NCBI GenBank assembly: GCA_963777505.1 | Contig: CAVZQN010000013.1 | Location: forward strand, 1 to 17,993 | Length of the DNA stretch: 17,993 nucleotides | DNA from: an uncultured bacterium | GTDB taxonomy: Bacteria; Acidobacteriota; HRBIN11; JAKEFK01 | Direction of reading: 5' to 3' | In this document: positions 370-17,993 of the stretch, one piece after another | How the letters are laid out: every line of letters starts with the position of its first letter | Numbering within the stretch: position 1 is the stretch's first letter | The notes under the pieces: generated by a model | Told to the model about the DNA's origin: nothing | Seen by the model: the letters and a program-made list of their open reading frames with translations, nothing else | The model's database searches: none | Position numbers and translations under genes: made by a program

Positions 370-1065
370 ATGAGCAATGATCTATCAATTCGCGGTTTAG
401 TACGGATTCCGGATTCGGCTGGATCCGATACGCAATCAGCAGAAGACAAGATCCAAAAAAATCCTGTAGGTAATTCTCAGCAGGCAGCCGCGACGCCAAA
501 GCTTCAACCGGAAGCCGCCAATGCACGCAGAGCTGAAGCAGGAATAACGGCGAATCAACTTCAATCGCAATTGCTCAACCAGACAAACAAAAAAATTTCT
601 ACAGGGACAACTCGTGCTACGAATCAAACACCAAAATCCGACGGCGCTGCTCTACAGAAGGCTCTCAAGATGTATGGGATTACGAATGAGCAACTGCAAC
701 GTTATGTTGCCACAGGTGAAGAGCCGGAAGGATTGAAGAAAGCTATAAGCGATGCAAGAGCTAAAGGCGGATGGCCCGCGCTAAATATTGTTCGTGCCAG
801 TTTTCAAAAGCGGGCGGAATACCTTCGAGCGAATAGCAGTCCGGATGATAATAAAAGCCGCGCACAAGCAGATCAACTCGATGCAGAATCCGCGAGCCTC
901 ACGCGAAATAGGCACGGGGTCCAACTGAAGCAGGCTAAGGATAGATTGGAATTAAGTAAAACCTCTACGCGTCCCGCTAACACTCAAAATCAAGTGACTC
1001 AAGCAACGATGGATATTGAAAACATAAGTGCTGAAATGGAGAAAATGATCAAACCGCGTAAGTAA
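370..1065 (+). CDS. Hypothetical protein (~231 aa), effector-like, with disordered N-terminus and the shared 19-aa motif
   Basis: ORF 358..1065; GGAGG at 360-364 favours the ATG at 370. Q/A/S/T-rich N-terminus, helical remainder, no hydrophobic signal peptide. Confidence 0.8.
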   Translation: MSNDLSIRGLVRIPDSAGSDTQSAEDKIQKNPVGNSQQAAATPKLQPEAANARRAEAGITANQLQSQLLNQTNKKISTGTTRATNQTPKSDGAALQKALKMYGITNEQLQRYVATGEEPEGLKKAISDARAKGGWPALNIVRASFQKRAEYLRANSSPDDNKSRAQADQLDAESASLTRNRHGVQLKQAKDRLELSKTSTRPANTQNQVTQATMDIENISAEMEKMIKPRK

Positions 1066-1188
1066 AAGTTGCTCCCCCCGTTGAATATCTATCGGTAACT
1101 CATAACCTTTCTTTGTCCCCCAAAAATAATCATTTTTTCTGCCGATTGCGTCGACATTTTCTCGCGTATTTCAAATAATACTTTTGAT

Positions 1189-1561
1189 CATTACATACTT
1201 GGCTGCGTTTACCTGGCGCAGTCGAAAGCTCAAGCTGCATTGGATGAAATGCAGCGTGAACCAGATATGGCTTTTCGATTGACGGGCCTCGCATCCGCAT
1301 ATCACGATTTGGGAAAGAAAAAGAATCGGATGCCGCATTAGCAGAACTGATCCAAAAATACCAAGGTGATTCAGCGTATCAAGTGTTAGTGTATATTCCT
1401 ACCGCGGTGAGACAGATAAAGCATTCGAATGGTTGGAACGCGCATACGTCCAACGTGATGGTGGATTATCCGAAATGAAAGGAGATCCGCTTTTGCGTAA
1501 CATTAGAAAGGATCCGCGTTTTACTGCCTTCCTCAAGAAAATGAACCTGCCGTTAGATTAG
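1189..1561 (+). pseudogene. C-terminal TPR remnant of a Ser/Thr kinase or TolB-like/TPR regulator
   Basis: Stitching frames gives HYILGCVYLAQSKAQAALDEMQREPD...AYHDLGKK/ESDAALAELIQKY...YRGETDKAFEWLERAYVQRDGGLSEMKGDPLLRNIRKDPRFTAFLKKMNLPLD*. This is the typical DPLL..LR.DPRF tail of such proteins. At least 2 frameshifts and no start codon. Confidence 0.8.
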
Positions 1562-1834
1562 TCTTTTGTGGAACCTCAAAAAGTTTTTCAGCCGCGGTCC
1601 TGATGTCATCGGGGATGGGGACCCACTGACTTGGTCAAAGGTGCCGAAGACTATGTTCTTTCCGACCGTAAAAAACCATCCAGAACAGGTACGGCTCTTA
1701 CATTATATATAAGAGAGGAAATAGACTGATAACTTTGTGGTGAGGAAGGCGCAGAAAGCTTCCTTATATATATTGGAATATGTTCTTTATCCAAATGTTT
1801 TTCTGCGGTTAAATAAATAGAACGGAGGTGGGTC

Positions 1835-2872
1835 GTGAATACTGACCGATTTCTCTCTCTGGAATCGATCGTAACGGTAATGGCTTTCGTCTTGTTGGTC
1901 TTAGGTGCAGGCTCGGTGCTTGCTGGCGACTCTGCGGATTCAGTCGTCGCATGTTTCCTCACCGATGCGGCTTGTGTCGGGAGGTTTGACTGTCGAGCAG
2001 CAAAAGGCAGCACAAGCAGAGTTAACAGGCAAACTACTTGGTGATTTGCCTTCCAATGCAATGGCTGTTCGAGTTCCGTTTACAGCGGAAGAAGCGGCCT
2101 CGATTGAAAAGTCGAAATCGACAGTTCCTCTGAAAATTGGAATGGTGAAGGCAATCAACCCACGCATTGAAGTTCGCGGTAAAAGTATCGCTCGCACAAC
2201 AACGCGTGACGGTGGTCTCGTATGGGCAGCAGTTTTCAATGCGGATAACGCAGGTGCGATCAGACTGCATGTGGAAAACATGTCGCTTCCTGCCGACACA
2301 AAAGTTTACCTGTACAGTAAGGATGGTCAGGCTTATAGGCCCTTATACCGGAAAGGGTCCGAATCGTACAGGTGAATTCTGGACCGCCACTATTTTCGGT
2401 TCGGAAGCGATCCTGCAACTGCACATTTCCTCTGCGGCAGCAAAGTCGAACTTGAGTAAAGTTTCGTTTTTCGGGTTCGGCAAGCAGGTTTGATTACGCG
2501 TAGATACGCAGGTGGATCGCAAGAGATTTTCAAACTCGTACCGAATGCGCCCCTGGCCGGAACTGGCCGTGTGACAATATAAACTGCGTTGAGGATGCGA
2601 CTTGCTACGGCGGTATCGCCGACACGCTGTCACTGGCAGTTGCAAAAATGGAGTGGCCACAGGGCGCATTCCTCTACACTTGCACAGGTGGGCTTATCAG
2701 TGACAACAATCCATCGCAGAATAACTTTTTCCTCACAGCGAATCATTGCGTTAGCAAAAACAACAATGCCAGGAACGTCAACTTCTACTGGCGATTCGCT
2801 ACTTCGTCCTGTGAAGGGACTTGTCCAACGAATGGTGGATGGTCATTTCAAACGCAGGGTGCGACTGTCTCC
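1835..2872 (+). pseudogene. Secreted trypsin-like (lysyl endopeptidase-type, S1) serine protease, frameshifted and 3'-truncated
   Basis: RBS GGAGG, a signal-peptide-like start (MAFVLLVLGAGSVLA), a propeptide split over ORFs 1905 and 2167, then CTGGLI...FLTANHC (catalytic His motif) in ORF 2648. No catalytic Ser motif follows. Confidence 0.8.
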
Positions 2873-3100
2873 CCGCGACGTGCAAAGGAGAAGCAGAGCT
2901 TAAGTGAAGAGTTGCGCCAGGAACATTTTTTATCTCTACTTTTTTCACCAAAGCAGAGGGATGTGTTGATGAAAAAAGTGCGAGGGGAAATGTTAAACAA
3001 AACTGAACGTGAATATTTTTCCCGGGTTGTCAAAAAACGGCTAATGGCCGTGACAGATCCTGATGTCCATCGTCTCGCTATGAAAGCTCTGCAACAATAA
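2873..3100 (+). pseudogene. Unrelated C-terminal fragment of a hypothetical basic helical protein, fused in frame to the protease remnant
   Basis: Composition switches abruptly after QGATVS from Cys/Gly/Asn-rich to K/R/E-rich (LFSPKQRDVLMKKVRGEMLNKTEREYFSRVVKKRL). Confidence 0.55.
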
Positions 3101-3145
3101 ACGCGCCGGTACCATAGAATGGCCTCATCAAATGGCGGATGTAAA

Positions 3146-3178
3146 GGCAAGAATTTGCCAAACGGCAAAATTTTGCCG
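3146..3178. promoter_or_regulatory. Tandem palindromic sites, candidate enhancer-binding-protein UAS
   Basis: GGCAAGAATTTGCC (3146-3159) and perfect palindrome CGGCAAAATTTTGCCG (3163-3178), about 65-100 bp upstream of a sigma54 motif. Confidence 0.55.
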
Positions 3179-3241
3179 ATTCGCAAAAAACAAAACGCAT
3201 TCTGATCTGATCATATCCTCGAAATCCTCCGCACAATGCTC

Positions 3242-3258
3242 TTGGCATAAGCGTTGCT
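3242..3258 (+). promoter_or_regulatory. Sigma54 (-24/-12) promoter
   Basis: TTGGCATAAGCGTTGCT matches TGGCAC-N5-TTGC with GG-N10-GC spacing, 28 bp before the ATG at 3287. Confidence 0.8.
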
Positions 3259-3286
3259 TTAGTGTTGAACGCATCAGGAGGGAAAA

Positions 3287-4546
3287 ATGTTTAAGGTCGG
3301 AATCAATTCAGCACCACGGATTACAACGCCGGAAATAAACGAGACCGAGGAAACTCAGCAACAAAATGTGCAGGAGCAGATTGCCCCGCAGCAGGCAAAA
3401 CCAGTTTCGGCCGCAAATTCATCGATTCGAAGTGAAGCTATGTTTTCGACAATGGCTATGCGTTCACAGTTGACTCAACAGTTAGCTAACAACGAATCTA
3501 TGAAATCGAATCCTGAATCGTTTCAAAACACCGCACAAGTTGATCTGAAAGCGCCCTTAACGGAGAGTCAGGCAGATCAGCAAATCAATAACAAACCTGA
3601 ATACGATCAGCGAAAACCACTCACTGGTAGAGATCCATGGAATGGAGCTCTGTTGCCTAAGACCCTATTCACAGGTGATGGTGATGATCTCGTTGATATT
3701 CAGCAGAGTTCCGATGGAAGAGTTCATGTGAATGTAAATGGAAAGGAAGCATGGTCCGGGACAGTCAGACAATATCAGTCACTGACAATTAATACTGGCG
3801 CTGGAAGCGATACTGTGAACATCCATAACATGAATTATTTGGTCGGTACTAAGCTTCAGACCGGTGATGGAAATGATGTAGTAAATAATCAGAGCTCGCT
3901 TACTTCGATCGATACAGGTGCGGGAAACGACACGGTCAATTCGAATGGAGACAATAATCAAATTAACACAGGCGAGGGAAACGATATTGTAGAAATAACC
4001 GGAGACAACAACGAAGTACAAACCGGAGACGGCGCTGATTGGGTTCGCCTGAACAGTGAGCGCTTTACGAATGGAGGAATTGACACTTACTCCGGTTACG
4101 CCAACCGCGTCGATACGGGAGCAGGAAATGATTCGGTGTTAGTCGAGGGACCAGTAGGGGCAGCCATTTCTACTGGTGACGGCGATGATTACGTTGACAA
4201 TAAAGGCAGTGGTTCCACTATTCAGACCGGTGATGGAAATGATTGGGTTGAAAATAGCGGAGATTACAGCAAAATCGCAACAGGCGGCGGAGACGATCGG
4301 ATCAATCAGACATCCGGAGAAGGAACAACGATCAATCCGGGAGAAGGCTACGATCATGTTTTTATTAAGGAAAATCATGATGGATCAGACACTGGCGGTT
4401 ATTGGATGAGAGATTCTTATACCGGACAGGATTACTGGGTGCGCCGTGAGGAAAATAGCGTGGCTCCAATCACGGTGGAAACAGATGGCAACGATGTTGT
4501 CTATAACAGCGATGATTCAAAAGTGATCGTTGATGATGAGAAGTAG
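3287..4546 (+). CDS. RTX-like Gly/Asp repeat (probable Ca-binding beta-roll) protein with effector-like N-terminus
   Basis: 419-aa ORF with RBS AGGAGG; about 11 copies of TGxG[ND]Dx[VI], often at 18-aa spacing; no Sec signal. Confidence 0.85.
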   Translation: MFKVGINSAPRITTPEINETEETQQQNVQEQIAPQQAKPVSAANSSIRSEAMFSTMAMRSQLTQQLANNESMKSNPESFQNTAQVDLKAPLTESQADQQINNKPEYDQRKPLTGRDPWNGALLPKTLFTGDGDDLVDIQQSSDGRVHVNVNGKEAWSGTVRQYQSLTINTGAGSDTVNIHNMNYLVGTKLQTGDGNDVVNNQSSLTSIDTGAGNDTVNSNGDNNQINTGEGNDIVEITGDNNEVQTGDGADWVRLNSERFTNGGIDTYSGYANRVDTGAGNDSVLVEGPVGAAISTGDGDDYVDNKGSGSTIQTGDGNDWVENSGDYSKIATGGGDDRINQTSGEGTTINPGEGYDHVFIKENHDGSDTGGYWMRDSYTGQDYWVRREENSVAPITVETDGNDVVYNSDDSKVIVDDEK

Positions 4547-4577
4547 GAGGAAATGTTAAAGTCGGAATCAATTCAGC
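4547..4577 (+). repeat. Direct-repeat copy of the RBS and first codons of gene 3287
   Basis: GAGGAAATGTTAAAGTCGGAATCAATTCAGC versus GAGGGAAAAATGTTTAAGGTCGGAATCAATTCAGC (3278-3312); 17 bp exact (4561-4577 = 3296-3312). Confidence 0.85.
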
Positions 4578-4613
4578 GACGAAGTTTTGAGTTTGAGGTG
4601 TCATTGTGTGTAT

Positions 4614-4627
4614 TGTACAATTGTACA
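4614..4627. promoter_or_regulatory. Palindromic TA operator overlapping a -10-like TACAAT
   Basis: Perfect palindrome TGTACAATTGTACA upstream of vapC; TGTACA cores are the known YefM/Phd-type operator. Confidence 0.65.
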
Positions 4628-4644
4628 TTAGGTTGAAATTTTGA

Positions 4645-5039
4645 ATGGAGATTGCAGTTGATGCATCGGTTCTTATCGCAGTAGTTGCGGAGGAGCCGGA
4701 AAAAGCAACTTTAATTGATCTAACAGCTGGAAGCAGTTCGATTACTCCAGCATCAACTCATTGGGAAATTGGAAATGCTTTCTCGGCTATGATAAAACGC
4801 AAACGCATTACAATAGCCGAAGCAGAAAAGGCGATTGAAAATTACAATCAGATTGCAATCCGTTTTGTCGATATCGATCTAGTTGAAGCATTACGACTCG
4901 CTGAAGATGCTGACGTATTTACGCTTACGATGCGTACTTATTGAAATGTGCACAAGCATCGAATTGTGCTCTTTTAACGCTGGATCATGGGCTTGTGCGT
5001 GCTGCAAAGCGCGCAAATATAAAGGTCCTTGAGGTTTAA
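4645..5039 (+). pseudogene. vapC: VapC/PIN-domain toxin, frameshifted near 4905-4918
   Basis: N-terminal VDASVLIA and WEIGNA; a second frame continues IYAYDAYLLKCAQASNCALLTLDHGLVRAAKRANIKVLEV* to TAA 5037-5039, completing the PIN acidic motifs. Confidence 0.85.
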
Positions 5040-5040
5040 T

Positions 5041-5301
5041 ATGAAAACGTATACGTACTCGAAGGCTCGTCAGAATTTAGCTTCCGTACTAAATCAGGCT
5101 AAGAAAGATGGGGCGGTTCGTATATCCAGAAGAGATGGGCAATCCTTCGAAATCAGGCCTGAACAACCAGGTAAATCTCCACTGGATGTTCCTGGAATTC
5201 AACTTGGAATCACCACTGACGAAATTATTCAGATTGTGCGGGAAGGTAGAAAAAAATATGGAGGATCATCCCGGATGAAGCGCCGGTCAAAAGATCGATG
5301 A
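5041..5301 (+). CDS. Phd/YefM-family antitoxin
   Basis: MKTYTYSKARQNLASVLNQAKKDGAVRISRRDG is a Phd/YefM N-terminal signature; the ATG lies just after the vapC stop with GAGG upstream. Confidence 0.88.
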   Translation: MKTYTYSKARQNLASVLNQAKKDGAVRISRRDGQSFEIRPEQPGKSPLDVPGIQLGITTDEIIQIVREGRKKYGGSSRMKRRSKDR

Positions 5302-5320
5302 AATAGTATTAATTACAACT

Positions 5321-5450
5321 ATGAAACGTTCAGGATTTGCAGATTTGCCGCTTAGGATCCGTAATGGGAATTGATTGACATTCCTCAGGAATTACTACAT
5401 CCGTCATGGGGACGCTCAAGCGCGGATTGAACATTCGTGCGAAAGAATTG
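5321..5450 (+). pseudogene. DUF763-family gene remnant (internal deletion plus nonsense codon)
   Basis: MKRSGFADLPL joined directly to LGSVMGID*HSSGITTSVMGTLKRGLNIRAKEL. Both resemble DUF763 motifs as I recall them (ADLPLH; GMDWHSSGITTSV.GALK), with TGG changed to TGA. Confidence 0.75.
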
Positions 5451-5455
5451 AAATC

Positions 5456-5530
5456 ACCACCAAGAACAAAGGTCACAAAGGATTTTATAAGATCTAAGTA
5501 ATATTTGTTCTTTGTGTCTTTGTCCTCCGT
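5456..5530. repeat. CACAAAG/CTTTGTG imperfect inverted-repeat element (REP/MITE-like)
   Basis: Left arm ACCACCAAGAACAAAGGTCACAAAG, AT-rich spacer, right arm TTTGTTCTTTGTGTCTTTGTCC. Confidence 0.55.
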
Positions 5531-5594
5531 TCACTACATGAGTTGGATCGTCTTCCTTTAAGAGCAAACAAATATGTAACAGGAGGACAAAAAA

Positions 5595-7469
5595 ATGGGT
5601 GGCGGACCAATAGGCGATCCAACAACAAAACCTATAACCCGAACGGATTCTGGTAATGTCGGGGCAACCGAGGATAAACAACCGGTCACAACCCCACCAC
5701 CGCCGTCGAAACCTGCGGACGACCCTGCAGTAACCGCAAAAACTTCTACAGCCTTGAAACAGCAAGGAACCGAAACAAAAAGTCAGCTTCAGATATCAGG
5801 ACAACTGGTTCAGCAAAACTTGAATAACGCCCTACCGGCCGGAGCGAAACCACAAGCCGCGGTCTTTGACGGACCCGGAATGGATCTGAAAAATGTCGTT
5901 GTTAGAAACTTTGATAAACCAATCGAAGCTGCAGCTCATGTAATGAAATATGAAAATACCGACCCGGCTCATGCGTCGCTGCAGTTTCATGAAATAGTTT
6001 CCAAACACAAAGATGATCCGAAATATCTGAAGGAATTTTTCGGAGCAATTGGCGGCGACAAGAGCAAAGAACTAATCGCACGATCTCACAATTTCCTGTA
6101 CATCAGCCGTCCCAATAACTCAAAAGCGGATGTTGATAAATATACAGGAGGTGTGCGAGATGCTATTCATACGCTGCATAAATCTGGCGATCTCACATCA
6201 TCGGACGTCCAGGGCATCGTGCATGCTGCAAACGCTCAGGGAGTGGATACTCTCGCAAAACTTTCTACGTCCATTTCGAATCTTCCTGAAGCAGAAAACT
6301 TGAAGAAGTCGTTTGCTGAAAACAATATGCAGCTTTATCAAGCCTATCAGTGGAATGCTACAGCGAAAGCGGCTTATGCTACGTCAGCTGCGGAATTGAT
6401 GGGGAAAACTACCACCGAAGATCAACTGAAATTCATGAGCAAGCTGAGTAAGGAAAACAAGCTTGACTCATTTGTTAAAGATGCGACTTCTTATCAACCT
6501 CAGTCCGTTTATGAAGCCTCTTCCACGTATGAAGGACGAAAAGCAGAAGCCACTCAACAACCAACAGGTGTCGCTAATCTTGTCAATACTACCTACATAG
6601 CAAGTCACGGAGATGCGCGTGATCGGTCACTCCCGATTAATGTTAAAGAGTTGGAAGACCTTCGGTTAAACATGTTCCAATCAGCAGCAGACGTGTACTC
6701 TGACCCTAAACGGATCCCAATCTGGTCTAAAAGCACGGACATGAAAGATGCCTTATCCGGAATTTTCCAGGATGATTTCGATAAGATTTGGAAATCTGGA
6801 CTTGCACAAAATAAGGCGGTATTTGATGACGAAAGCGACAACCCACACAGGTCGGCAATTCAGCCGAAACTGGAAGGGTTTTTCCAGCATGCTCTGTTTT
6901 CTGAACCTACAGGCCAGTATCGTGATGAGACGAGTAAATTTCTTGCAGGAAAAATGAACGGTTGGATGGCTGACATCAACGATTCAAAAATGTCAAAACA
7001 AGCTTTCTCTGCGAAATACGGAATGGAACGGACTCAACTCACGCACATCATGGGCGAAACCATGGGCTTTGTTAACAATGGAATGCAGACTGCGGTTAAG
7101 AGTGCGAAAGATCGCAAGGCTGCGAATGAAGCCGGATTAAAGTGGATGATGGATCTTGGATTCAGCTTACTGCCGGGAGGGGGCATTCCTAAAAAGATGC
7201 TTGGAATCGAAGGCGCGGAAACGATTTCCAAAATCGTTGCAGGTGTTCATGAAAAAGCGAAGGATGCGTTGAAAGATATGACCAAAGATGAAGCCGTGAA
7301 ATATTTGTTGAAAGAATATCCGGGTTTGCGCGCGGATAAAGTCATGGAGGAACTCTTTCAGGAACTGCGGGAAGCAGCGCCAGGTAGCGACGGTCACGAT
7401 CTTTTATCTGCGCTTCAAAGTTCTTACACTCATGTAGATTTGCACCCCAAAATTCCTGGTGGCGTTTAA
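5595..7469 (+). CDS. Hypothetical 624-aa predominantly helical protein with Pro/Thr-rich N-terminus and the shared motif
   Basis: Long intact ORF with RBS AGGAGG; no Sec signal; short hydrophobic Gly-rich segment near the C-terminus (WMMDLGFSLLPGGG). Confidence 0.9.
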   Translation: MGGGPIGDPTTKPITRTDSGNVGATEDKQPVTTPPPPSKPADDPAVTAKTSTALKQQGTETKSQLQISGQLVQQNLNNALPAGAKPQAAVFDGPGMDLKNVVVRNFDKPIEAAAHVMKYENTDPAHASLQFHEIVSKHKDDPKYLKEFFGAIGGDKSKELIARSHNFLYISRPNNSKADVDKYTGGVRDAIHTLHKSGDLTSSDVQGIVHAANAQGVDTLAKLSTSISNLPEAENLKKSFAENNMQLYQAYQWNATAKAAYATSAAELMGKTTTEDQLKFMSKLSKENKLDSFVKDATSYQPQSVYEASSTYEGRKAEATQQPTGVANLVNTTYIASHGDARDRSLPINVKELEDLRLNMFQSAADVYSDPKRIPIWSKSTDMKDALSGIFQDDFDKIWKSGLAQNKAVFDDESDNPHRSAIQPKLEGFFQHALFSEPTGQYRDETSKFLAGKMNGWMADINDSKMSKQAFSAKYGMERTQLTHIMGETMGFVNNGMQTAVKSAKDRKAANEAGLKWMMDLGFSLLPGGGIPKKMLGIEGAETISKIVAGVHEKAKDALKDMTKDEAVKYLLKEYPGLRADKVMEELFQELREAAPGSDGHDLLSALQSSYTHVDLHPKIPGGV

Positions 7470-7911: not shown

Positions 7912-8424
7912 CTAATGTCGTTCTTCCTTTTTGGAAGTCTTTCTAATGCTGCCAAGGTCATTAGATTCACTATTTCTTCTTGCAACTGCTTCTAAGAGGT
8001 CCGCATTTTGATTTGTAGCGGCTATAGGTTTTGGCTCTGAATGCTCTGAGCCTTTTGAATTTTCCTGCAAATCCTGTGATTGATTTGTGAGTTCTTCCAA
8101 GTATTCGCTAAGTTCGTTCGCCGTTTGATTCTGTTCTTGCAAGTTTTCCAGATAATCCTTTTTGTCTTCATTCGTTTCGCTAATCGACTGACGAAACGCA
8201 TTAAAAAGGGTGTCCTTCAGGTTTGGTTGCTGTGAAACTTCAAATCGCTGATGTGCAGACGATGTTGAATTTGTTTTTCCGTTAGAGGACTTACTGGAAG
8301 CCGATTCAAAAGAATCTGGAATTGAACTTATACCTACACTTACGCCCGGTTTTTTTTCAATCGTGGAATTGTGAGTTTCAATAGTTTGAGAAGTATTAAT
8401 TCCGTTTGATTTTTTGATCTGCAT
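7912..8424 (-). CDS. Hypothetical 170-aa protein: Ser-rich N-terminus plus acidic coiled coil
   Basis: RBS CAGGAGG and a sigma54 promoter upstream; LFNAFRQSISETNEDKKDYLENLQEQNQTANELSEYLEEL is a heptad-like segment. Confidence 0.8.
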   Translation of the reverse strand: MQIKKSNGINTSQTIETHNSTIEKKPGVSVGISSIPDSFESASSKSSNGKTNSTSSAHQRFEVSQQPNLKDTLFNAFRQSISETNEDKKDYLENLQEQNQTANELSEYLEELTNQSQDLQENSKGSEHSEPKPIAATNQNADLLEAVARRNSESNDLGSIRKTSKKEERH

Positions 8425-8471: not shown

Positions 8472-8488
8472 AGCAAGTTCAATGCCAA
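8472..8488 (-). promoter_or_regulatory. Sigma54 (-24/-12) promoter
   Basis: Minus strand reads TTGGCATTGAACTTGCT (GG-N10-GC), 47 bp before the ATG at 8424. Confidence 0.8.
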
Positions 8489-8834: not shown

Positions 8835-11800
8835 ATGAAACTCAGGAAGGCGATGTTCGCCGTAATTGTATGCGCGTGCTTGATCACGCCAACTTTGTCG
8901 GCGCAGACTGATAGCAACGATGCTCGCGATGCTGCATTGAAGCGGCTTCAGGATTCGGCTGGTGGAATGTTGGTGGTTTCGAAGCACAAAGCAACGGGTG
9001 CTGCTCGATTTATCCGGCTGCAACCCGAAGCAAGTGCCAGGCTGGGCATCACACAAGCCCCAACGAAACAAGACAAGCAGGAGCAATCCTTATTGTTTTT
9101 CCGTAACTTTGGTGCTGCGCTTGGAGTGAGTGATGCAAATGAGCTTCGATTTCATTCCGAAGTCATCGACCAACTCGGCGAAACGCATTTAACATGGAAA
9201 CAATTTCATGGAGGCGTCCCCGTATTTGCCGGTACCATCAAAACCCATTTTGACGCTTCGAATCAACTGAAGGCAGTAGTTGGAACTGCAATCCCTGGTA
9301 TATCTGTAAAACCAACACCGACATGGGAGAGCGGACGTGCCGCAGAGGTTGCTCGGAATTTCGTAATCTCTGATCGCGGGAATTCAAATAATCTCAGAAT
9401 TGGAAAGAAAACTCTCTACATTTTTCGGGAAGGCCTGGTGAAAGGCGTTCCAGGTGCCAACCATTTAGCATGGGAGATCGAAGTTACGGATGGCGCGGGG
9501 ATCCGCGACTTCGTTTATGTTAACGCGCATACAGGAAAAGTTATCGACAGAATTACTGGTGTGCACGATGACCTGTTTCGACGCGCCTACAACGGCAAAG
9601 GTCTACCAGTTGTTCCCAATAGTTATCCGAACCGTCCGTATTGGGTAGAAGGGGATCGATTTCCAACCAGGCAAGAGGAAGCAAACAACATGATTATCGC
9701 TTCCGAAGAAACATATAACATGTTCAAAAATGCGTTTGGATATCTTTCATACGATGGTGAAGATGGAATCATGGATGCAATCTTCAACCGTGGATATGGC
9801 TGTCCGAATGCATCATGGAATGGTTCGTTCATTTCATTCTGCCCTGGTTATACAACGGATGATGTAACCGCTCACGAATGGGGGCACGCTTACACTCAGT
9901 ATGCAAACAATCTGATTTATCAATGGCAATCCGGTGCTCTGAATGAGTCTTACTCTGACATTTGGGGTGAGACGATTGATTTTATTAATAACCGTGGCGT
10001 TGATGCTCCTGGTGGACCGCGCACTGCAGCAGCATGTTCCAGTTTCTCTCCTCCGGTAGGTCAGGTAAAAGTGAATTCGCCTGCAGGGATCGCTGGAGAT
10101 AAATTCGCTCAATCTGCTTCTTTTGGTCCGCCATTAACATCAACGGGTATTACGAATGACGTAGTAGCCGCGCTTGATCCTGCTGATGCAGCGGGACCAA
10201 GCACATTCGACGGTTGCTCAGCACTAACAAACGCTGCAGCCGTCAGCGGAAAGATTGCGATTGTGAACCGTGGTACCTGTACGTTTGTTCAGAAAGTACT
10301 CAATGCACAGGCTGCTGGCGCTGTTGGCGTGATCATCGCAAACAATGCGGCCAATGGTCTTCCGCCAATGGGTACTGCAGCCGGAGCAGAGAATGTGACA
10401 ATTCCATCACTTGGAATTCAACAAGCTGATGGAAATGCCATTCGAACAGCTCTCCAAACAGATGTTGTGAATGTAACTCTACTTGCGGAAGAAGGCGCCG
10501 ATCAATCGTATCGCTGGTTGATGGGTGAAGAAATTACTTCGGGTGGCGCACTACGCGATATGTGGAATCCAACATGCTATTCCAATCCTGGAAAAGTCAC
10601 CGACACAGCGTACTACATCTGTAACGCAACGGATAACGGTGGTGTACACATAAATTCCGGAATACCAAACCACGCTTTCGCATTGCTTATCGATGGTGGA
10701 ACGTTTAATGGAGAAACTGTTACACCAATCGGTCTTACGAAGGCAGTTCATATCCACTTCCGCGCTGCTACGGTTTATCACGTAGATGACAGTGATTTCG
10801 TTGATCATGCGGATGCGTTGGAAGCATCATGCGCAGATCTCACAGGGCAGCCACTCAATGCACTGACCGGCGGAGATTCTGGCGAAGTCATCACTCCGGC
10901 CGATTGTGCTGAAGTAACCAATGCAATTGAAGCTGTTGAACTGCGGACACTACCAGCATTCTGTAATTTTGGTCCACTCCTGAATCCTGGACTACCAGAT
11001 CTTTGCGATGCCGAAGTTACAAGCGGAGTTGTAGAAGACATCCAGTTGTTCGACTTTGAAAGTGATCCTGGCTCATCATGGATCATCGGCCGCACTGCAA
11101 CTTCACCTAGCTTCACACCTCGCGATTGGACATGGGTCGGTTCACTTCCAGATGGACGCGCCGGATCCGCCTTCTTCTCACCTGATCCGAATAGCGGTAA
11201 CTGCGTGCCAGATGATGATGAAACTGGAGTTTTGAATCTAACAAGTCCTGAGATCATTCTTCCTGCGACATCCGACTTTGCTATGGCAACATTCGACCAT
11301 TGGATTGCCACTGAACCAGCAGTCGATGGAGGAATCTTGTTGATTAGTGTAAATGGCGGACCATTCCAGCAAATTCCGCCATCGGAATTTACTTTCAACA
11401 ATTACATTGTGTTCTTGCTTGGAAGTACTAACCCATTAGCAGGACTGCCAGCATGGAGCGGCACTGATCCCGGCTCAGCCAGTCAAGGATCATGGGGACG
11501 TACACACGTAAATCTCGGAAACTTTGCACAACCCGGAGACTCGATCCGCTTGCGTTGGGATTTCGGAACCGATTGTGGAACTGGAGCCACCGGTTGGTAC
11601 GTGGACAATGTAAACGTCTTCAGTTGTGAACCAAACCTTCCAGAAATTTCAATCAGCGATGTGGAAATTGCGGAAGGTGATTCTGGAACTACTCCAGCAA
11701 CCTTTATTGTCACGCTTTCAACACCAACGATAGCAACTGTGTCAGTCAACTTCGAGATAGTAAAGGGCACAGCAAAACCAGGCCAGGATTATAAAAAGAA

Positions 11801-11975
11801 TAATGGCGGCACTGTCGTTATTCCGGCTGGAGCTACGGAAGGTGAAATAACCGTTAACATCAAAGGTGATAACAAATCGGAACAGGACGAAACCTTTTCA
11901 GTGGTACTGAGCGACGCAGTGAATGCAACACTTGTGGATGCTGAAGCTCAAGGTACGATCCAAACCGATGATTAA
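8835..11975 (+). CDS. Secreted M4 (thermolysin-family) zinc metalloprotease with propeptide, PA domain and C-terminal Calx-beta domain
   Basis: Signal peptide (MKLRKAMFAVIVCAC...LSA); FTP/PepSY-like propeptide; NASW; HEWGH; GALNESYSD; PA motif (GKIAIVNRGTCTFVQKVLNAQAAGA); GGVHINSG; Calx-beta-like end (GTAKPGQDY...EQDETFSVVL). Confidence 0.95.
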   Translation: MKLRKAMFAVIVCACLITPTLSAQTDSNDARDAALKRLQDSAGGMLVVSKHKATGAARFIRLQPEASARLGITQAPTKQDKQEQSLLFFRNFGAALGVSDANELRFHSEVIDQLGETHLTWKQFHGGVPVFAGTIKTHFDASNQLKAVVGTAIPGISVKPTPTWESGRAAEVARNFVISDRGNSNNLRIGKKTLYIFREGLVKGVPGANHLAWEIEVTDGAGIRDFVYVNAHTGKVIDRITGVHDDLFRRAYNGKGLPVVPNSYPNRPYWVEGDRFPTRQEEANNMIIASEETYNMFKNAFGYLSYDGEDGIMDAIFNRGYGCPNASWNGSFISFCPGYTTDDVTAHEWGHAYTQYANNLIYQWQSGALNESYSDIWGETIDFINNRGVDAPGGPRTAAACSSFSPPVGQVKVNSPAGIAGDKFAQSASFGPPLTSTGITNDVVAALDPADAAGPSTFDGCSALTNAAAVSGKIAIVNRGTCTFVQKVLNAQAAGAVGVIIANNAANGLPPMGTAAGAENVTIPSLGIQQADGNAIRTALQTDVVNVTLLAEEGADQSYRWLMGEEITSGGALRDMWNPTCYSNPGKVTDTAYYICNATDNGGVHINSGIPNHAFALLIDGGTFNGETVTPIGLTKAVHIHFRAATVYHVDDSDFVDHADALEASCADLTGQPLNALTGGDSGEVITPADCAEVTNAIEAVELRTLPAFCNFGPLLNPGLPDLCDAEVTSGVVEDIQLFDFESDPGSSWIIGRTATSPSFTPRDWTWVGSLPDGRAGSAFFSPDPNSGNCVPDDDETGVLNLTSPEIILPATSDFAMATFDHWIATEPAVDGGILLISVNGGPFQQIPPSEFTFNNYIVFLLGSTNPLAGLPAWSGTDPGSASQGSWGRTHVNLGNFAQPGDSIRLRWDFGTDCGTGATGWYVDNVNVFSCEPNLPEISISDVEIAEGDSGTTPATFIVTLSTPTIATVSVNFEIVKGTAKPGQDYKKNNGGTVVIPAGATEGEITVNIKGDNKSEQDETFSVVLSDAVNATLVDAEAQGTIQTDD

Positions 11976-12072: not shown

Positions 12073-12366
12073 TCAGGCTGAAATTGGTTGTATGCGTGCG
12101 AGTACTTTTTCGATTCGATCTTTTTCTTTATCAAGATCGTATCGTGATTGAAGATTCAACCAAAATCTCTCTGATGTACCAAAGTATCTAGATAATCGAA
12201 GCGCTGTGTCTGCGGAAATGGATCGTTTTGCATGTACGATCTCATTGATGCGTCTAGGAGGCACGCCGATATCAGTAGCAAGGCGGTATTGTGTGATTTT
12301 CATTGGTAGCAAGAATTCTAGTTGCAAAATTTCCCCAGGATGAATGGGGATCATTTTTTTTGCCAT
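12073..12366 (-). CDS. higA: HigA antitoxin (XRE HTH)
   Basis: IHPGEIL..EFL, RRINEIV, RSISADTALRLSRYFGTSERFWLNLQ. Confidence 0.95.
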   Translation of the reverse strand: MAKKMIPIHPGEILQLEFLLPMKITQYRLATDIGVPPRRINEIVHAKRSISADTALRLSRYFGTSERFWLNLQSRYDLDKEKDRIEKVLARIQPISA

Positions 12367-12376
12367 AACGCTTCTC

Positions 12377-12658
12377 CTAGTGGTAATCCGTTATTTCAAC
12401 TTCTTCGGCATCAGATCCAATCCAATTAAAACAAATCCGCCATTGATTATTTATTCTGATGCTATATTGACCTTTTCGATTTCCTTTCAATGCCTCTAAA
12501 CGGTTTCCCGGAGGTATGCTTAAATCGGATAACTTTTCTGCAGCGTCCAGAAGTAAAAGTTTTCGACGGGCACTCCGCTGCACCTCACGTGAAAATCTGC
12601 GAACAAGAATCCTATTAAAAATCTTTTCGGTATCATCGCCCTTAAAGGTCTTGATCAC
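12377..12658 (-). CDS. higB: HigB toxin (RelE/ParE superfamily)
   Basis: PPGNRLEALKGNRKGQYSIRINNQWRICF...EITDYH; GTG start; upstream of higA. Confidence 0.95.
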   Translation of the reverse strand: MIKTFKGDDTEKIFNRILVRRFSREVQRSARRKLLLLDAAEKLSDLSIPPGNRLEALKGNRKGQYSIRINNQWRICFNWIGSDAEEVEITDYH

Positions 12659-12968: not shown

Positions 12969-15900
12969 GTGACAGAATCCCGTGAAGATCCTGAGCCTCC
13001 TGAATCCAATGATTCCGTCGATTCCAGCCCTTCCCAACTTTTGACTCTCGATTCAGATGCAGACGCCAAGGCAAAAGGCGACGGCCACTTTCAAATTCCA
13101 AAACATATTGGTCATTATGATATTGATGCTGTTTTAGGTTCTGGCGGAATGGGACAGGTTTTCAAAGGTTATGATCCAAAACTCAAACGGTTCGCAGCAT
13201 TAAAGATATTGCGTGCTGAAACTCCTCAATTGAATCGCCGTTTTGCTCAGGAAGCAAGATTACAAGCAAGAATTGATCACCCCAATGTTTGTAAAGTGTA
13301 TGAAGTAGGGGAGGTCGATGGAAAGCATTTTATTGCAATGCAATTTATCGCTGGCAAAACTTTGCGCGATGCAGCGACAGAATTAAAACTTGAAGAAAAG
13401 CTCCGGATCATCAAGCAAGTTGCGGAGGCGTTGCATTCTGCGCATAAAGAAGGGCTTATTCACCGGGACATCAAACCATCCAACATCATGGTGGTAAAAA
13501 CTGAAGAAGGAATCTGGCAGCCCTATATTCTGGATTTCGGTTTAGCGCGGGAGCAAGAAGCTGCAGGTTTAACACTTTCAGGAGTTGTTGTTGGAACCCC
13601 GCACTATATGGCTCCGGAACAAGCTCGCGGGGATACGGCTCATCTTGATCGCAGGACAGATGTCTACGGTCTTGGAGCTACATTGTATGAATTGCTCTCA
13701 GGTCAAACACCCTATCCTGGCAAAAGTTCCGCTGACGTTTTGATCAGGGTGTTGCAAGAAGATCCTGTTCCAATTAGAAAAATCGATCGTAATATTCCGA
13801 TCGATCTTGAAACGATTGTGATGAAGTGCATGCAAAAGGAGCCTCATCTCCGTTATGAATCTGCTAAAGAATTGTACGAAGATCTTCAAAGGTATTTGGA
13901 TGGCGATCCGATTTCAGCCAGGCCGATACGTTTTTCAGAACGCCTGATTAAAAAAGCAAAGAAAAATAAAGTAGCTGCAGTAAGCATCGCCGGCGCTTTA
14001 CTGATCACTTTGGTTCTTATTAGCGCTTTAGTCTGGGTGCAAACAAAGTCCAGCATTCAATCAAAGTATGCAAGAGAGTTCGGTGAGGAAGTTCGAAGTA
14101 TTGAATCGATGATGTTAAGCGTTTATTCAGCTCCAATCCATGATATTAGATCGGAATCAGCTGTAGCCAAAAAGCGTCTTTCCAAAATTGAAAATCGAAC
14201 CAGGGAAGCTGGTAGTTGGGCATATGGTCCGGGACATAATGCGCTGGGGTTGGGATATTTCGCTATCGGTGACTACGACAAAGCATTTCAAAATCTGGAA
14301 ATTGCGTGGCAATCTAATTATCGTGAACCATCAACGATCTACACTCTTGGGAAGCTGTATGGAATCCGTTATCAACGTGAATTAGCCGAAGCAGCATCCA
14401 TTAAGAACAAAGTACTTCGTGATGAGCAATTTGCGAAAATCGAGAAAGAGCTTCGTGATCCGGCCGTTGAATACTTGAAGATGTCGAAAACGAGCATTGA
14501 TTCGCCTGCGTATGCGGAAGGACTCATTGCATTTTATGAGAAGCGATACAGTGATGCGCTAAAAAATGCCATTGAGGCTTACAAGCAAGCCGGTTGGTCT
14601 TACGATGCAAAAAAATTGGAAGGAGATCTTTATCAATCAAGAGCGAGTGAACTTGAAGATAAGGGTGACTCTGAAGAAGCTGCAAAGAATTTGGATGCGG
14701 CGGCCGCCGCCAATCGGATCGCCATCGAATTAGGTAGAAGTAGAGCAGAAATCTACTTGAACGAAGCTTCCAGATGGACTGAAATTCTGATTCGCGATAC
14801 AGAGAAGGGAAAGACCAATCAAACTGCTTTCGATCAAGGACTTCATTTTGCGGATCAAGCAATCGTGATTAATCCGGAAGCTCCGGAAGGATACGCTCGC
14901 AAGCTAAAAATCTACACCAGTGCAGGAAACTATCTGATGTACAACACCGGTGAAGACCCGCGGAAGATGATGGAACAGGCAATTCAGATGGGTGAGCAAT
15001 TGCAGAAGTTAAGTCCGCGAAATCCTATCGCATTCTCTGAATCCGGAATTGCATACAGATTGATTGGCGAGTATCAGCTTCGACATGGAATGGATCCACG
15101 AAATTCGTTGGCTAAATCGATAGACCTTCTTGGAAAATCGGTTCAGATTAAGCCAGGATTTTCACCATATTTAGGAGCACTTGGCGTTGCGTATTCACTT
15201 CTTGCAGAATATGAACTGAAACACGGAAAAGATCCACGGCCTACATTTCAGAAAGCGATTCAACAATATCGAACCTCTGAACAAATAAATCCTAACTACA
15301 CCCAGGCCTTTATAAATGCTGGAATCGCATACTGGTTCATTGCGTCTTATGAAGCGTCACGTGGCTTAGATCCAACATCTGCTTTCCAAAATGCAATTGA
15401 ACAATATCAAACGGCCATCAAAGCGAATCCAAAAAATGCCTTTGCCTTATTTAATCTGAGCCTTGCATACATGGAGGCGGGTAATTTTGAGCTTCTTTCG
15501 GGACGTGATCCCACTAAATCATATGCACAATGTCTTGATACTTTGAAGAAATGTGCAGAGCTAATGAACAATTCATATGTTCCAACTGCATTCGGCAGTA
15601 TTTTTTATCAGATGGCAAATTACGAGTTTCAAAAAGGAAATGATCCGACATCTTTACTTGAACAATCGCGCAATTCTTATCAGAAATCGATTGAAATAGA
15701 TCCTTCTAATTATGAGCCATTCGGATTTCTAGGGCGTGATGAAACTCTTGCCGCGCGCTGGAACATAAAATTGGGACATTCTCCGAGTACCCTGTTTCAA
15801 ATGGGCCGAAAAAATTTCAAAAAAGCCATCGAGTTGAATAAAGAAGAACCTACCGTCTATCAGCTATATGCCGATTTGTTGCGAAGGGAAGCTGAATGGC

Positions 15901-16254
15901 TTCAATCCCAAAAACGATCTGGAGCTGAACCGATTTCCACCGGGTTGCAGATCGTCAAAAAAAATCTCGATCTTGATTCTACATCGTCCGAAGCTTACGC
16001 TCTGGAAGGAACGTTTTTCTCTTGAAGGCAGAAGAACAAACAGATAAGACATGCGATCCAATTTGGTCACCAAAAGTAAACTTTCTTTGGAGTATGCTTT
16101 GAAGTTGAATCGCTGGCTGAAAAAGAAGTATGAGCCGGTTCTGGAAGAGCGAATAAAGGCCTTGAATGAGGCGAACCTGATCACGAAGAATTCGAAGAGC
16201 GCTAAACCAAATATTAACGTCAAACGTTATTGCTCACATTTTAAGACGGACTGA
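12969..16254 (+). CDS. Membrane-anchored Hanks-type Ser/Thr kinase with large TPR region; last ~75 codons frameshifted
   Basis: LGSGGMGQV, AALK, HRDIKPSN, DFG, GTPHYMAPEQ; TM segment (VAAVSIAGALLITLVLISALVWV); many TPRs. ORF stops at 16025 but TPR-like text continues (LKAEEQTDK, then MRSNL...LEYALKLNRWLKKKYEP) via two frame changes. Confidence 0.92.
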
Positions 16255-17291: not shown

Positions 17292-17361
17292 CTGAGGAGG
17301 AAGAATGATGCTGCCAGTAGTACTACAACAATAGCAGATTCCGATTAATTTACGCTAGACT

Positions 17362-17391
17362 GTAGGGGCGGGGTCTAAGACCTGCTCGCAC
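17362..17391 (+). repeat. GTAG-type REP-like palindrome
   Basis: GTAGGGGCGGGGTCTAAGACCTGCTCGCAC: a GTAG tetranucleotide followed by a GC-rich imperfect hairpin. Confidence 0.6.
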
Positions 17392-17993
17392 GGTCGGTGC
17401 GTGCATCGAGATCCTTTCCGCGTGCTTGTTCGGGCGACATGTAAGCAACGGTGCCCATAGTCGATCCGCTCTTTGGTTAGTTGCTGCGGTGTGGCTGGCA
17501 GTGGGCATCTCCGTATCTGTTGTTTCGAGCTCCGCTGGTCTGTTTGGCCAGTCCAAAGTCGAGCAGCTTTGCTTGACTCCGCGTTCGGTGACGAAAATGT
17601 TGGCCGGCTTAATATCGCGATGGATGATGTGTTTTGCATGTGCAGAATCAAGGGCATCCGCAATTTGAGAACCCCATTCCAGAATCTGCTCGATCTCCAT
17701 CGGTTGTCCGGAAATGGTGTGCTTTAACGTTTTTCCTTTCATCATTTCCATGGCGATGAAAGGACGTCCCTTCGTGTTCGCCGATGTCGTGGATGGTGCA
17801 GATGTGTCGAATGGTTCAAAGCAGATGCCGATTGAGCTTCGCGCCGGAACCGCTCCAATGCTTCCGGAGTTGCAACTAAATCGTCAGGAAGGAATTTCAG
17901 TGCGACATGACGTTTGAGGTTCAGATCCTCAGCCTCATACACCACGCCCATACCGCCGCCACCAAGCTTATTTAGAATGCGATAATGTGCAAC
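17392..17993 (-). pseudogene. Hanks-type Ser/Thr kinase, multiply frameshifted and truncated (5' end beyond window)
   Basis: [38 protein letters not shown] and [21 protein letters not shown] are spread over different frames. Confidence 0.9.

Follow-up and report, generated by a model that had tools for sequence, protein, structure and literature searches.

A 19-residue motif shared by three orphan proteins of an uncultured acidobacterium appears to belong to a portable N-terminal module, a possible export tag

The stretch of DNA considered here, called the window, makes up all of contig C13 (17,993 nt) in the genome assembly of an uncultured member of the Acidobacteriota, and it carries the genes of three otherwise unrelated proteins, P0001, P0002 and P0003, which an earlier note had singled out for a shared 19 amino acid motif near their N-termini. 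Judged from sequence comparison, this motif is part of a larger element, a portable and lineage-specific N-terminal module of about 90 residues, which stands at the front of 12 or more distinct soluble proteins without Sec features in the same genome, and of others in two genera of the family. Its role is proposed with less assurance: the reading that we favour, at somewhat below even confidence, is that the module is a portable export tag for a needle-less machine of the class that resembles a system for type III secretion (T3SS). The focal genome, labelled G000, comprises 5.23 Mb in 14 contigs, is 95.9% complete and has 44% G+C. It forms a family set with six relatives (G001 to G006), of which G001 belongs to the same genus, and a class set of 13 genomes was used for the wider comparison.

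The three 19-mers lie in the translations exactly where the earlier note had placed them (Table 1), and each gene has a GGAGG-type ribosome site a few bp upstream of its ATG. Pairwise identity among the 19-mers, read by eye, is 7/19, 4/19 and 4/19, with a leucine as the single invariant column, and BLASTP among the three full proteins gave no cross-match at E<=1. Family searches and BLASTP bore out that the C-terminal cargoes are mutually unrelated, and the leader before the motif, described earlier as disordered, was predicted to be so by AlphaFold2. The lack of a Sec peptide also held: no hydrophobic 19-mer reached a Kyte-Doolittle mean of 1.6 in any of 23 candidate proteins, the highest 19-residue mean was at most 1.44 in all 23, and none of them qualified as having a Sec or Tat signal peptide or a transmembrane segment. 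In contrast to the module proteins, the neighbouring amidohydrolases and the M4 peptidase encoded in the window have obvious signal peptides.

The background for the motif searches was the set of 24,375 six-frame open reading frames (ORFs) of the focal genome, with the same set reversed as the control. The regular expression written for the motif matched 8 of these ORFs and no reversed one; the 8 are the three genes together with near-identical copies of them on contigs C7 and C12. A profile reached much further. When the relatives were searched with P0003, only residues 7-95 found matches, and these were the N-termini of three otherwise unrelated frames in two family genomes; a MAFFT alignment of six N-termini, the three from the window and the three from the relatives, falls in the register that the earlier note had proposed. 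A hidden Markov model (HMM) of the six matched 17 of the 24,375 ORFs at E<0.01 and none in the reversed set, all 17 matches being within the first ~110 residues and 7 of them in new, unrelated genes, and its iteration in the focal genome converged at 18. The pattern yielded nothing beyond the three genes and their copies, and the family was extended only by the profile, whose further matches are confined to N-termini.

A broader profile came from an alignment of 15 module sequences (A1), in which one leucine, Leu76 of P0003, is invariant. Against 1.84 billion representative proteins it gave 34 matches at E<=0.001, every one of them N-terminal, starting at residue 32 or before and ending at residue 114 or before. 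Within the family, at E<=0.01, it matched 19 places in G000, 10 in G001, 6 in G003 and 1 in G005, with no match in G002, G004 or G006, and the remaining families of the class had none. In the relatives the 14 new matches all lie 8-75 residues into their open frames; in one relative's member a LysM-like domain, read by eye, is inserted before the helix described below. No family in Pfam or NCBIfam scored above cut-off on the N-terminal ~100 residues of the module, and the A1 profile had no match at E<=1 among 177,635 PDB sequences. The Pfam family YbjN had no match in the focal genome, and a loose regular expression for the start of the module, run over all candidate starts, was dropped after it returned 131 mostly irrelevant matches.

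How firmly each of the three window proteins belongs to this family differs. A profile from which all three window groups had been left out still recognised P0003 at E 6e-22, and by sequence P0003 is firmly a module member. With only their own group left out, P0001 was found at E 0.027 and P0002 at E 0.069, ranking 18th of 24,375. In hhalign comparisons the P0001 family aligned with the main family at P 0.0017 (0.08-0.11 for reversed-alignment controls), the P0002 family with the main family at P 0.0007 (controls 0.12-0.2), and the P0001 and P0002 families with each other at P 0.016 (reversed control 0.52); once realigned, the P0001/P0003 and P0001/P0002 profiles fall in the register of the earlier note. 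On these comparisons P0001 and P0002 are probable, divergent members.

P0001 matched 10 other proteins at E<=0.01, of which the 7 full-length ones are 54-65% identical to it and have the motif almost unchanged, and a homologue of its cargo, P0100, bears a different N-terminus, so that the module would be swappable. The relatives of P0002 found with the module profile (P0005, P0011, P0013, P0015 and P0020) retain both the start and the motif. The cargo of P0003 had only 2 matches among 5.8 billion proteins; in P0039, which is 40% identical to it there, the motif is retained behind an inserted segment of ~90 amino acids.

Table 1. Coordinates of the three genes, their motifs and associated features in the window
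Feature	Position	Strand	Description or basis
P0001, 231 aa	370..1065	+	probable divergent N-terminal module and ~130-aa cargo without known family
19-aa motif of P0001, aa 54-72	529..585	+	translation
sigma-54-type promoter TGGCAT-N5-TTGC, 44 nt 5' of P0002	3243..3257	+	
P0002, 419 aa	3287..4546	+	probable divergent N-terminal module and RTX-like calcium-binding repeat cargo
19-aa motif of P0002, aa 48-66	3428..3484	+	translation
P0003, 624 aa	5595..7469	+	robust N-terminal module and orphan ~520-aa cargo
predicted single module helix of P0003, aa 44-79	5724..5831	+	AlphaFold2 on alignment A1
19-aa motif of P0003, aa 62-80, C-terminal half of the helix	5778..5834	+	translation; includes invariant Leu76

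The module of ~90 residues has four parts, a start, a disordered linker, a helix and a second linker, after which the cargo begins. The start reads M-x(1-4)-[RK]-[IV]-[GD], followed by P-[IV] within about ten residues, and the first linker is rich in P, T, S, Q and E. The helix, ~35 residues long and often opened by D-P, has the core A-x-K-Q-x-A-T-E-x-K, then hydrophobic positions and the end L-x-x-Q-L, which can be written from the core onward as A-T-E-x-K ... hydrophobic-x-[GA]-x-x-hydrophobic-hydrophobic-[QKR]-x-x-L-x-x-x-[LV]. AlphaFold2 run on A1 predicted a helix of ~36 residues at 44-79 between disordered stretches at 1-43 and 80-110, with a predicted local distance difference test score (pLDDT) of 78-79 for residues 61-80 and ~48-55 elsewhere. 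In the model of a full-length member, residues 1-78 have pLDDT<50 and the cargo pLDDT>90, and the module is not packed on the cargo. Elsewhere in the focal genome a 709 amino acid canonical RTX-repeat protein (G000:C1:369931-372060, +) opens with M-T-K-I-G-S, as module members do, and has no helix, so the start motif may occur alone.

The helix is also the part that evolution appears to have kept. Among 23 orthologues of the member modelled at full length, with 50-84% identity in the cargo, the helix columns have a conservation of 0.70-0.81, the folded domains of about 0.75-0.9 and the linkers of 0.38-0.46; since the helix is conserved about as well as the folded domains and the linkers are not, the alignment indicates purifying selection on the helix.

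The cargo behind the module is diverse. A PG_binding_1 domain follows the module directly in 8 proteins, P0002 and its paralogue on contig C9 carry RTX-like calcium-binding repeats (in P0002, sub-threshold matches to the calcium-repeat families HemolysinCabind and SMc04171), one member has an alpha/beta hydrolase and another has TPR repeats. No Pfam or NCBIfam family passes for the cargo of P0001, as for most module cargo. A protein atlas links the P0003 cargo only weakly to DUF6571-type clusters: the score is 0.92, and 4-10 in 100 shuffled proteins score as high. The best-sampled member consists of a PG_binding_1 domain (Z 10.5), a helical middle and a C-terminal zincin-like fold. With an exhaustive aligner the best structural match of this last domain had Z 8.5 at a root-mean-square deviation of 3.5 A over 141 aligned residues, and further zincins matched it at Z 6-8, a middling range for that aligner; the domain has no HExxH motif, and invariant His and Glu residues are present. 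In a Foldseek search of the PDB the PG-binding domain was the one part of this protein to be matched. A weak further candidate, G000:C6:267238-268203 (+), has a module-like start, a helix-like segment, annexin-like repeats read by eye and a strict sigma-54 promoter.

In the genome the module genes are dispersed, and a conserved-neighbour analysis revealed no recurrent machine or chaperone gene beside them; the neighbours that do recur encode kinases, TPR proteins, sigma-54 activators, amidohydrolases and sulfatases. The genome has 75 strict sigma-54 promoters, of which 58 lie before a gene, and the window has 2 where 0.14 would be expected. Such promoters precede P0002, its copies on C7 and C12, the C9 paralogue, the member C3_5802 and two weak candidates. 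Two matches over cut-off to CesT, a family of type III chaperones, were found at G000:C3:354248-354987, one forming the C-terminal end of a Ser/Thr kinase, the other free-standing, adjoining a sigma-54 activator and an FHA-domain exporter. The focal genome also encodes small TPR proteins (C5:6134-6661, C7:85337-85810 and C7:117676-118158) homologous to those of the T3SS-like cluster of G001 described below.

PG_binding_1, RTX-like repeats and zincin-like domains usually occur in proteins that act outside the cytoplasm and, because all three are among the cargo, the cargo points to action there. The module would then be an address tag that takes its bearers out of the cytoplasm: its extreme N-terminus would serve as the export signal, and a receptor or chaperone would dock on its helix. 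The machine would most likely be a non-flagellar, apparently secretin-less type III apparatus of the class, "needle-less" in the manner of the Myxococcus T3SS*. A secretin-less machine might hand proteins to the periplasm or to a pilus, which would fit the peptidoglycan-binding cargo.

A T3SS-like route is plausible for the lineage because most of the relatives carry FHIPEP (FlhA/SctV), within a T3SS-like cluster, most genomes of the class have the YscO-like gene of that cluster, and none of them has rod genes. Five of the 6 family relatives, G001 included, each have a single FHIPEP gene, matched at 756-775 bits. In G001 the cluster lies at C3:93400-109520 (loci L094 and L095), and further FHIPEP or T3SS-like loci are on G002:C18, G003:C187, G004:C8 and G005:C778. 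The G001 cluster encodes a sigma factor, an FHA-FliM/N fusion, FliO, a short YscJ-type lipoprotein (SctJ), three small TPR proteins, FliH/SctL, the SctN ATPase, a YscO-like protein (SctO), a FliK/HpaP-like protein (SctP-like), and SctR, SctS, SctT, SctU and SctV; among the 28 proteins of this one cluster that were scanned there was no secretin, flagellin, hook or rod protein. A YscO-like gene is present in 10 of the 13 class genomes, always within a few kb of FHIPEP where both could be located, and flagellar rod genes in none of the 13; from this gene content it follows that a non-flagellar, apparently secretin-less T3SS-like machine is, as far as gene content can tell, ancestral to the class.

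Several observations weigh against such an export tag. FHIPEP, FliP and the YscO-like family each had no match in the focal assembly, which also contains no homologue of the sct proteins of G001; by the yardstick that the earlier note itself set, a suitable export apparatus in the genome, its T3SS reading fails for this assembly. The module genes persist, mostly intact, in an assembly that is 95.9% complete and has none of the T3SS genes. The missing genes reflect either loss or an assembly gap; across G001:C3:4-184 kb only 1 ORF has an orthologue in G000 at 62% identity or more. The module is also narrower in range than the apparatus, being found in only 4 of the 13 class genomes (genera g1 and g3), and genus g2 has the apparatus and no module match. 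No module gene lies in or beside the T3SS-like cluster, the module HMM had no significant match in the G001 island (best E 0.5, ~100 ORFs), and no sigma-54 promoter was found in that island of 60 kb; several module genes do have one. T3SS signals, moreover, are usually without sequence conservation. As for the window proteins, P0001 and P0002 are marginal members only, neither being detected (E>100) when both of their groups were left out, and copies of P0002 look damaged: the one on C7 is interrupted by an in-frame TAA stop and the one on C12 is shortened, ending at 297 amino acids. At G000:C8:427083-429366 (-) a 146 amino acid module ORF overlaps a 679 amino acid TPR ORF; the two are a single gene in G001, and the split in G000 is therefore either a frameshift or a sequencing error. 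The proposals of the earlier note have accordingly fared unevenly. Its non-canonical T3SS-like route is plausible for the lineage and lacks an apparatus in this assembly, and its dispersed export substrates with a targeting motif of their own stand as a Sec-less N-terminal family on unrelated cargo but, again, have no such apparatus here to be substrates of.

The fullest version of the favoured reading goes further and is on the unlikely side: the module would be a signal, defined by its sequence, for export through a type III-like machine without needle or secretin in Acidobacteriota that lack flagella and may be predatory, and its bearers would be the first candidate substrates for this class of machine, among them peptidoglycan-binding zincin-fold proteins, an RTX-like protein and the three orphans of the window. 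Type III-like export seldom shows a conserved, recognisable address tag, and for the Acidobacteriota none has been described; in the literature we found no description of the module, nor of a non-flagellar T3SS in this phylum, though such loci could stand in supplementary tables. Should the tag indeed feed the needle-less T3SS-like machine of this class, the substrates of that machine could be listed with a simple profile search, and the questions of what needle-less T3SS machines export and how prey is lysed, as posed in the available text of PMC12075869, would become directly testable. Whatever the route, the module marks out some 10-20 proteins per genome, a set that evolves fast and is probably exported, in a soil lineage that is uncultured.

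Another route is in fact the first alternative to be weighed, and we consider it rather improbable. The module would in that case be an address or translocation tag for some other, unrecognised pathway, to which the type III-like machine of the relatives is unrelated; the pathway could be an exporter that has yet to be described, a release through lysis or in vesicles, or a disordered, colicin-like domain for uptake that acts on target cells. The persistence of module genes in an assembly without any T3SS gene and a module range that does not track that of the apparatus both speak for it, and the focal genome does hold 12 GspE/PilB/CpaF-type ATPases and 3 secretins. However, type II, type IV pilus and Tad routes require Sec or prepilin signals, which the members lack, and no candidate machine stands beside them. 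Other exporters were sought by family. TssC, the contractile sheath (Phage_sheath_1), VirB4 and Peptidase_C39 each had no match in the focal assembly, the last of these being matched in 7 of 14 control genomes. Across the family, VipB/TssC was found in 0 of 7 genomes, Phage_sheath_1 in G001 only, and VirB4 as one weak match in G003. The module alignments have no consensus for a double-glycine leader, that is, one ending in GG.

Two further observations bear on the colicin-like and effector-like forms of this alternative. A conserved ORF of 141-144 amino acids follows the PG-binding zincin-fold member at two loci in G000 and in G001, an arrangement known from effector/immunity pairs. Co-folding of the zincin-fold member with the downstream ORF gave a median of 0.49 (runs 0.00, 0.65 and 0.49) with 0.01 for the best control, a contact agreement of at least 0% and a partner pLDDT of at least 69, which lends the pairing weak support: 58 of 80 solved complexes came up to the mark used, as did 2 of 110 mismatched pairs, and scores of 0.60 or less belonged to only 7 of the 80 solved complexes and to both of the mismatched pairs that passed. 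Most members, for their part, have no immunity-like neighbour. Mimicry of a TonB box by the start motif, as in colicins, was rejected: with a position-specific scoring matrix built from 21 TonB boxes of the focal genome's own receptors, the real starts scored as their own shuffles did (median -3.0 vs -3.2), with 3 of 43 above their own 95th percentile, so that the likeness is purely compositional.

The second alternative dispenses with export altogether, and it too strikes us as rather unlikely. In it, the module is an intracellular docking or regulatory peptide, either a short linear motif to which TPR, FHA or Ser/Thr kinase proteins bind or a phospho-regulated tail. In its favour, a Ser/Thr kinase lies within 6 kb of 6 of the 11 distinct member loci, where the background rate among genes is 21% (post hoc permutation test, p 0.015), in a genome with 102 kinase-domain genes. 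Among the neighbours there are also TPR proteins, as well as sigma-54 activators that bear FHA or receiver domains, a conserved Thr or Ser precedes the Glu of the helix core, and one of the two CesT-family domains at C3:354 kb is fused to a kinase. The kinase enrichment is modest, though, one of the neighbouring activators is the PilR of an ordinary pilus operon, and the PG-binding subfamily has no kinase neighbour. Cargo such as PG_binding_1, RTX-like repeats and the zincin-like domain is typical of extracytoplasmic action, and a docking peptide has no need of strict N-terminal confinement with a conserved start motif.

That the likeness of P0001 and P0002 to P0003 is convergent or compositional, a Q/S/T-rich leader joined to any amphipathic helix, so that the three-way motif is a coincidence and P0003 alone is in the family, is very improbable: the missing BLAST cross-matches, the loss of both proteins from profiles without their groups, hhalign probabilities of 15-26% and Viterbi registers that differed from that of the earlier note favour it, but the hhalign P-values of 0.0007-0.0017 against 0.08-0.2 for reversed controls, the register restored on realignment for P0001/P0003 and P0001/P0002, the same build in all (conserved start, disordered linker, helix at ~45-75, second linker, swappable cargo), a motif nearly invariant within its own groups (the 7 homologues of P0001 and the 5 relatives of P0002) and the location of the three genes together in one variable island speak against it.

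This island is present more than once in the assembly. Contig C13 is a mosaic near-copy, at 86-98% nucleotide identity, of C7:169.5-184.8 kb (169558-184795) and of contig C12, and P0001, P0002 and P0003 each exist in three versions whose proteins are 96-98% identical; the copies represent either variants of different strains brought together in binning or a variable island that has been triplicated. Between P0002 and P0003 the window has an insert of ~0.9 kb, seen in neither the C7 nor the C12 copy, with a PIN-domain gene and a Phd/YefM-type antitoxin gene (4645-4944 and 5029-5301, both +). A second toxin-antitoxin pair, read by eye from the translations alone, consists of a HigA-like helix-turn-helix antitoxin and a HigB/RelE-like toxin (12073-12366 and 12377-12658, both -). 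Upstream of P0002 is a trypsin-like serine protease gene (1905-3100, +) that is seemingly split over at least two frames (ORFs 1905-2375 and 2648-3100); its Trypsin match is weak, and a catalytic His-type motif is visible. Downstream of P0003, a 170 amino acid ORF rich in S, T, N and Q (7912-8424, -), without known family, starts with M-x-I-K-K, is unmatched by the module profile and is preceded by its own strict sigma-54 promoter (8473-8487, -). The rest of the window carries the secreted peptidase of the M4 (thermolysin) type, which has PA and Calx-beta domains (8835-11975, +), a Ser/Thr kinase with a long TPR region (12969-16025, +) and a fragment of another kinase gene (17350-17751, -).

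Among known systems, type III effectors offer the nearest general parallel to the module proteins. They have an N-terminal secretion signal followed by a chaperone-binding domain, and one group of Salmonella SPI-2 effectors, marked by WEK(I/M)xxFF, shares a conserved N-terminal translocation domain. The module likewise occupies the first ~100 residues, has no Sec features, and combines a disordered start rich in S, T, P and I with a helix at ~45-80, and its cargo is swappable and its genes are dispersed. It differs in a sequence that is much more conserved and lineage-specific, in the lack of an adjoining dedicated chaperone gene and in the lack of an apparatus in the assembly.

The N-terminal markers of polymorphic effectors, such as MIX and LXG, are folded domains tied to type VI or type VII secretion. 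Like them, the module is one conserved N-terminal element on many unrelated C-terminal domains and is lineage-restricted; unlike them, it is mostly disordered, and none of the 7 family genomes has TssC. Colicins and pyocins have intrinsically unstructured translocation domains, and the module resembles these in being a disordered N-terminus with short conserved epitopes and no signal peptide, with one member next to a possible immunity-like gene and another bearing a cell-wall-directed domain. The resemblance ends with a TonB-box likeness that is compositional and with the absence of an immunity-like neighbour or recognisable toxin domain in most members.

For the machine itself the closest comparison is with the Myxococcales. 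According to the available text of a 2012 survey (Abby and Rocha, PMC3459982), this order has systems that lack secretin, needle, tip and translocon, and non-flagellar T3SS were found only in Chlamydiae, Proteobacteria and Verrucomicrobia, with Acidobacteria entered for flagella only. The needle-less T3SS* of Myxococcus is described, in the available text of Herrou et al. (PMC12075869), as required for prey lysis and acting with a Tad-like pilus, with effectors unknown. The cluster of the relatives studied here, known from its genes alone, is similarly a compact sct-like one with a sorting platform, an ATPase and an export gate; a secretin was missing from the 28 proteins scanned in one cluster, as was any clear needle or translocon family, and the class is without rod genes. 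It belongs to another phylum, and it differs from the Myxococcus system in having FliO and the FHA-FliM/N fusion. The module proteins are tied to this cluster only by their presence in the same lineage, and their peptidoglycan-directed cargo would fit a role in lysis like that of the Myxococcus T3SS*.

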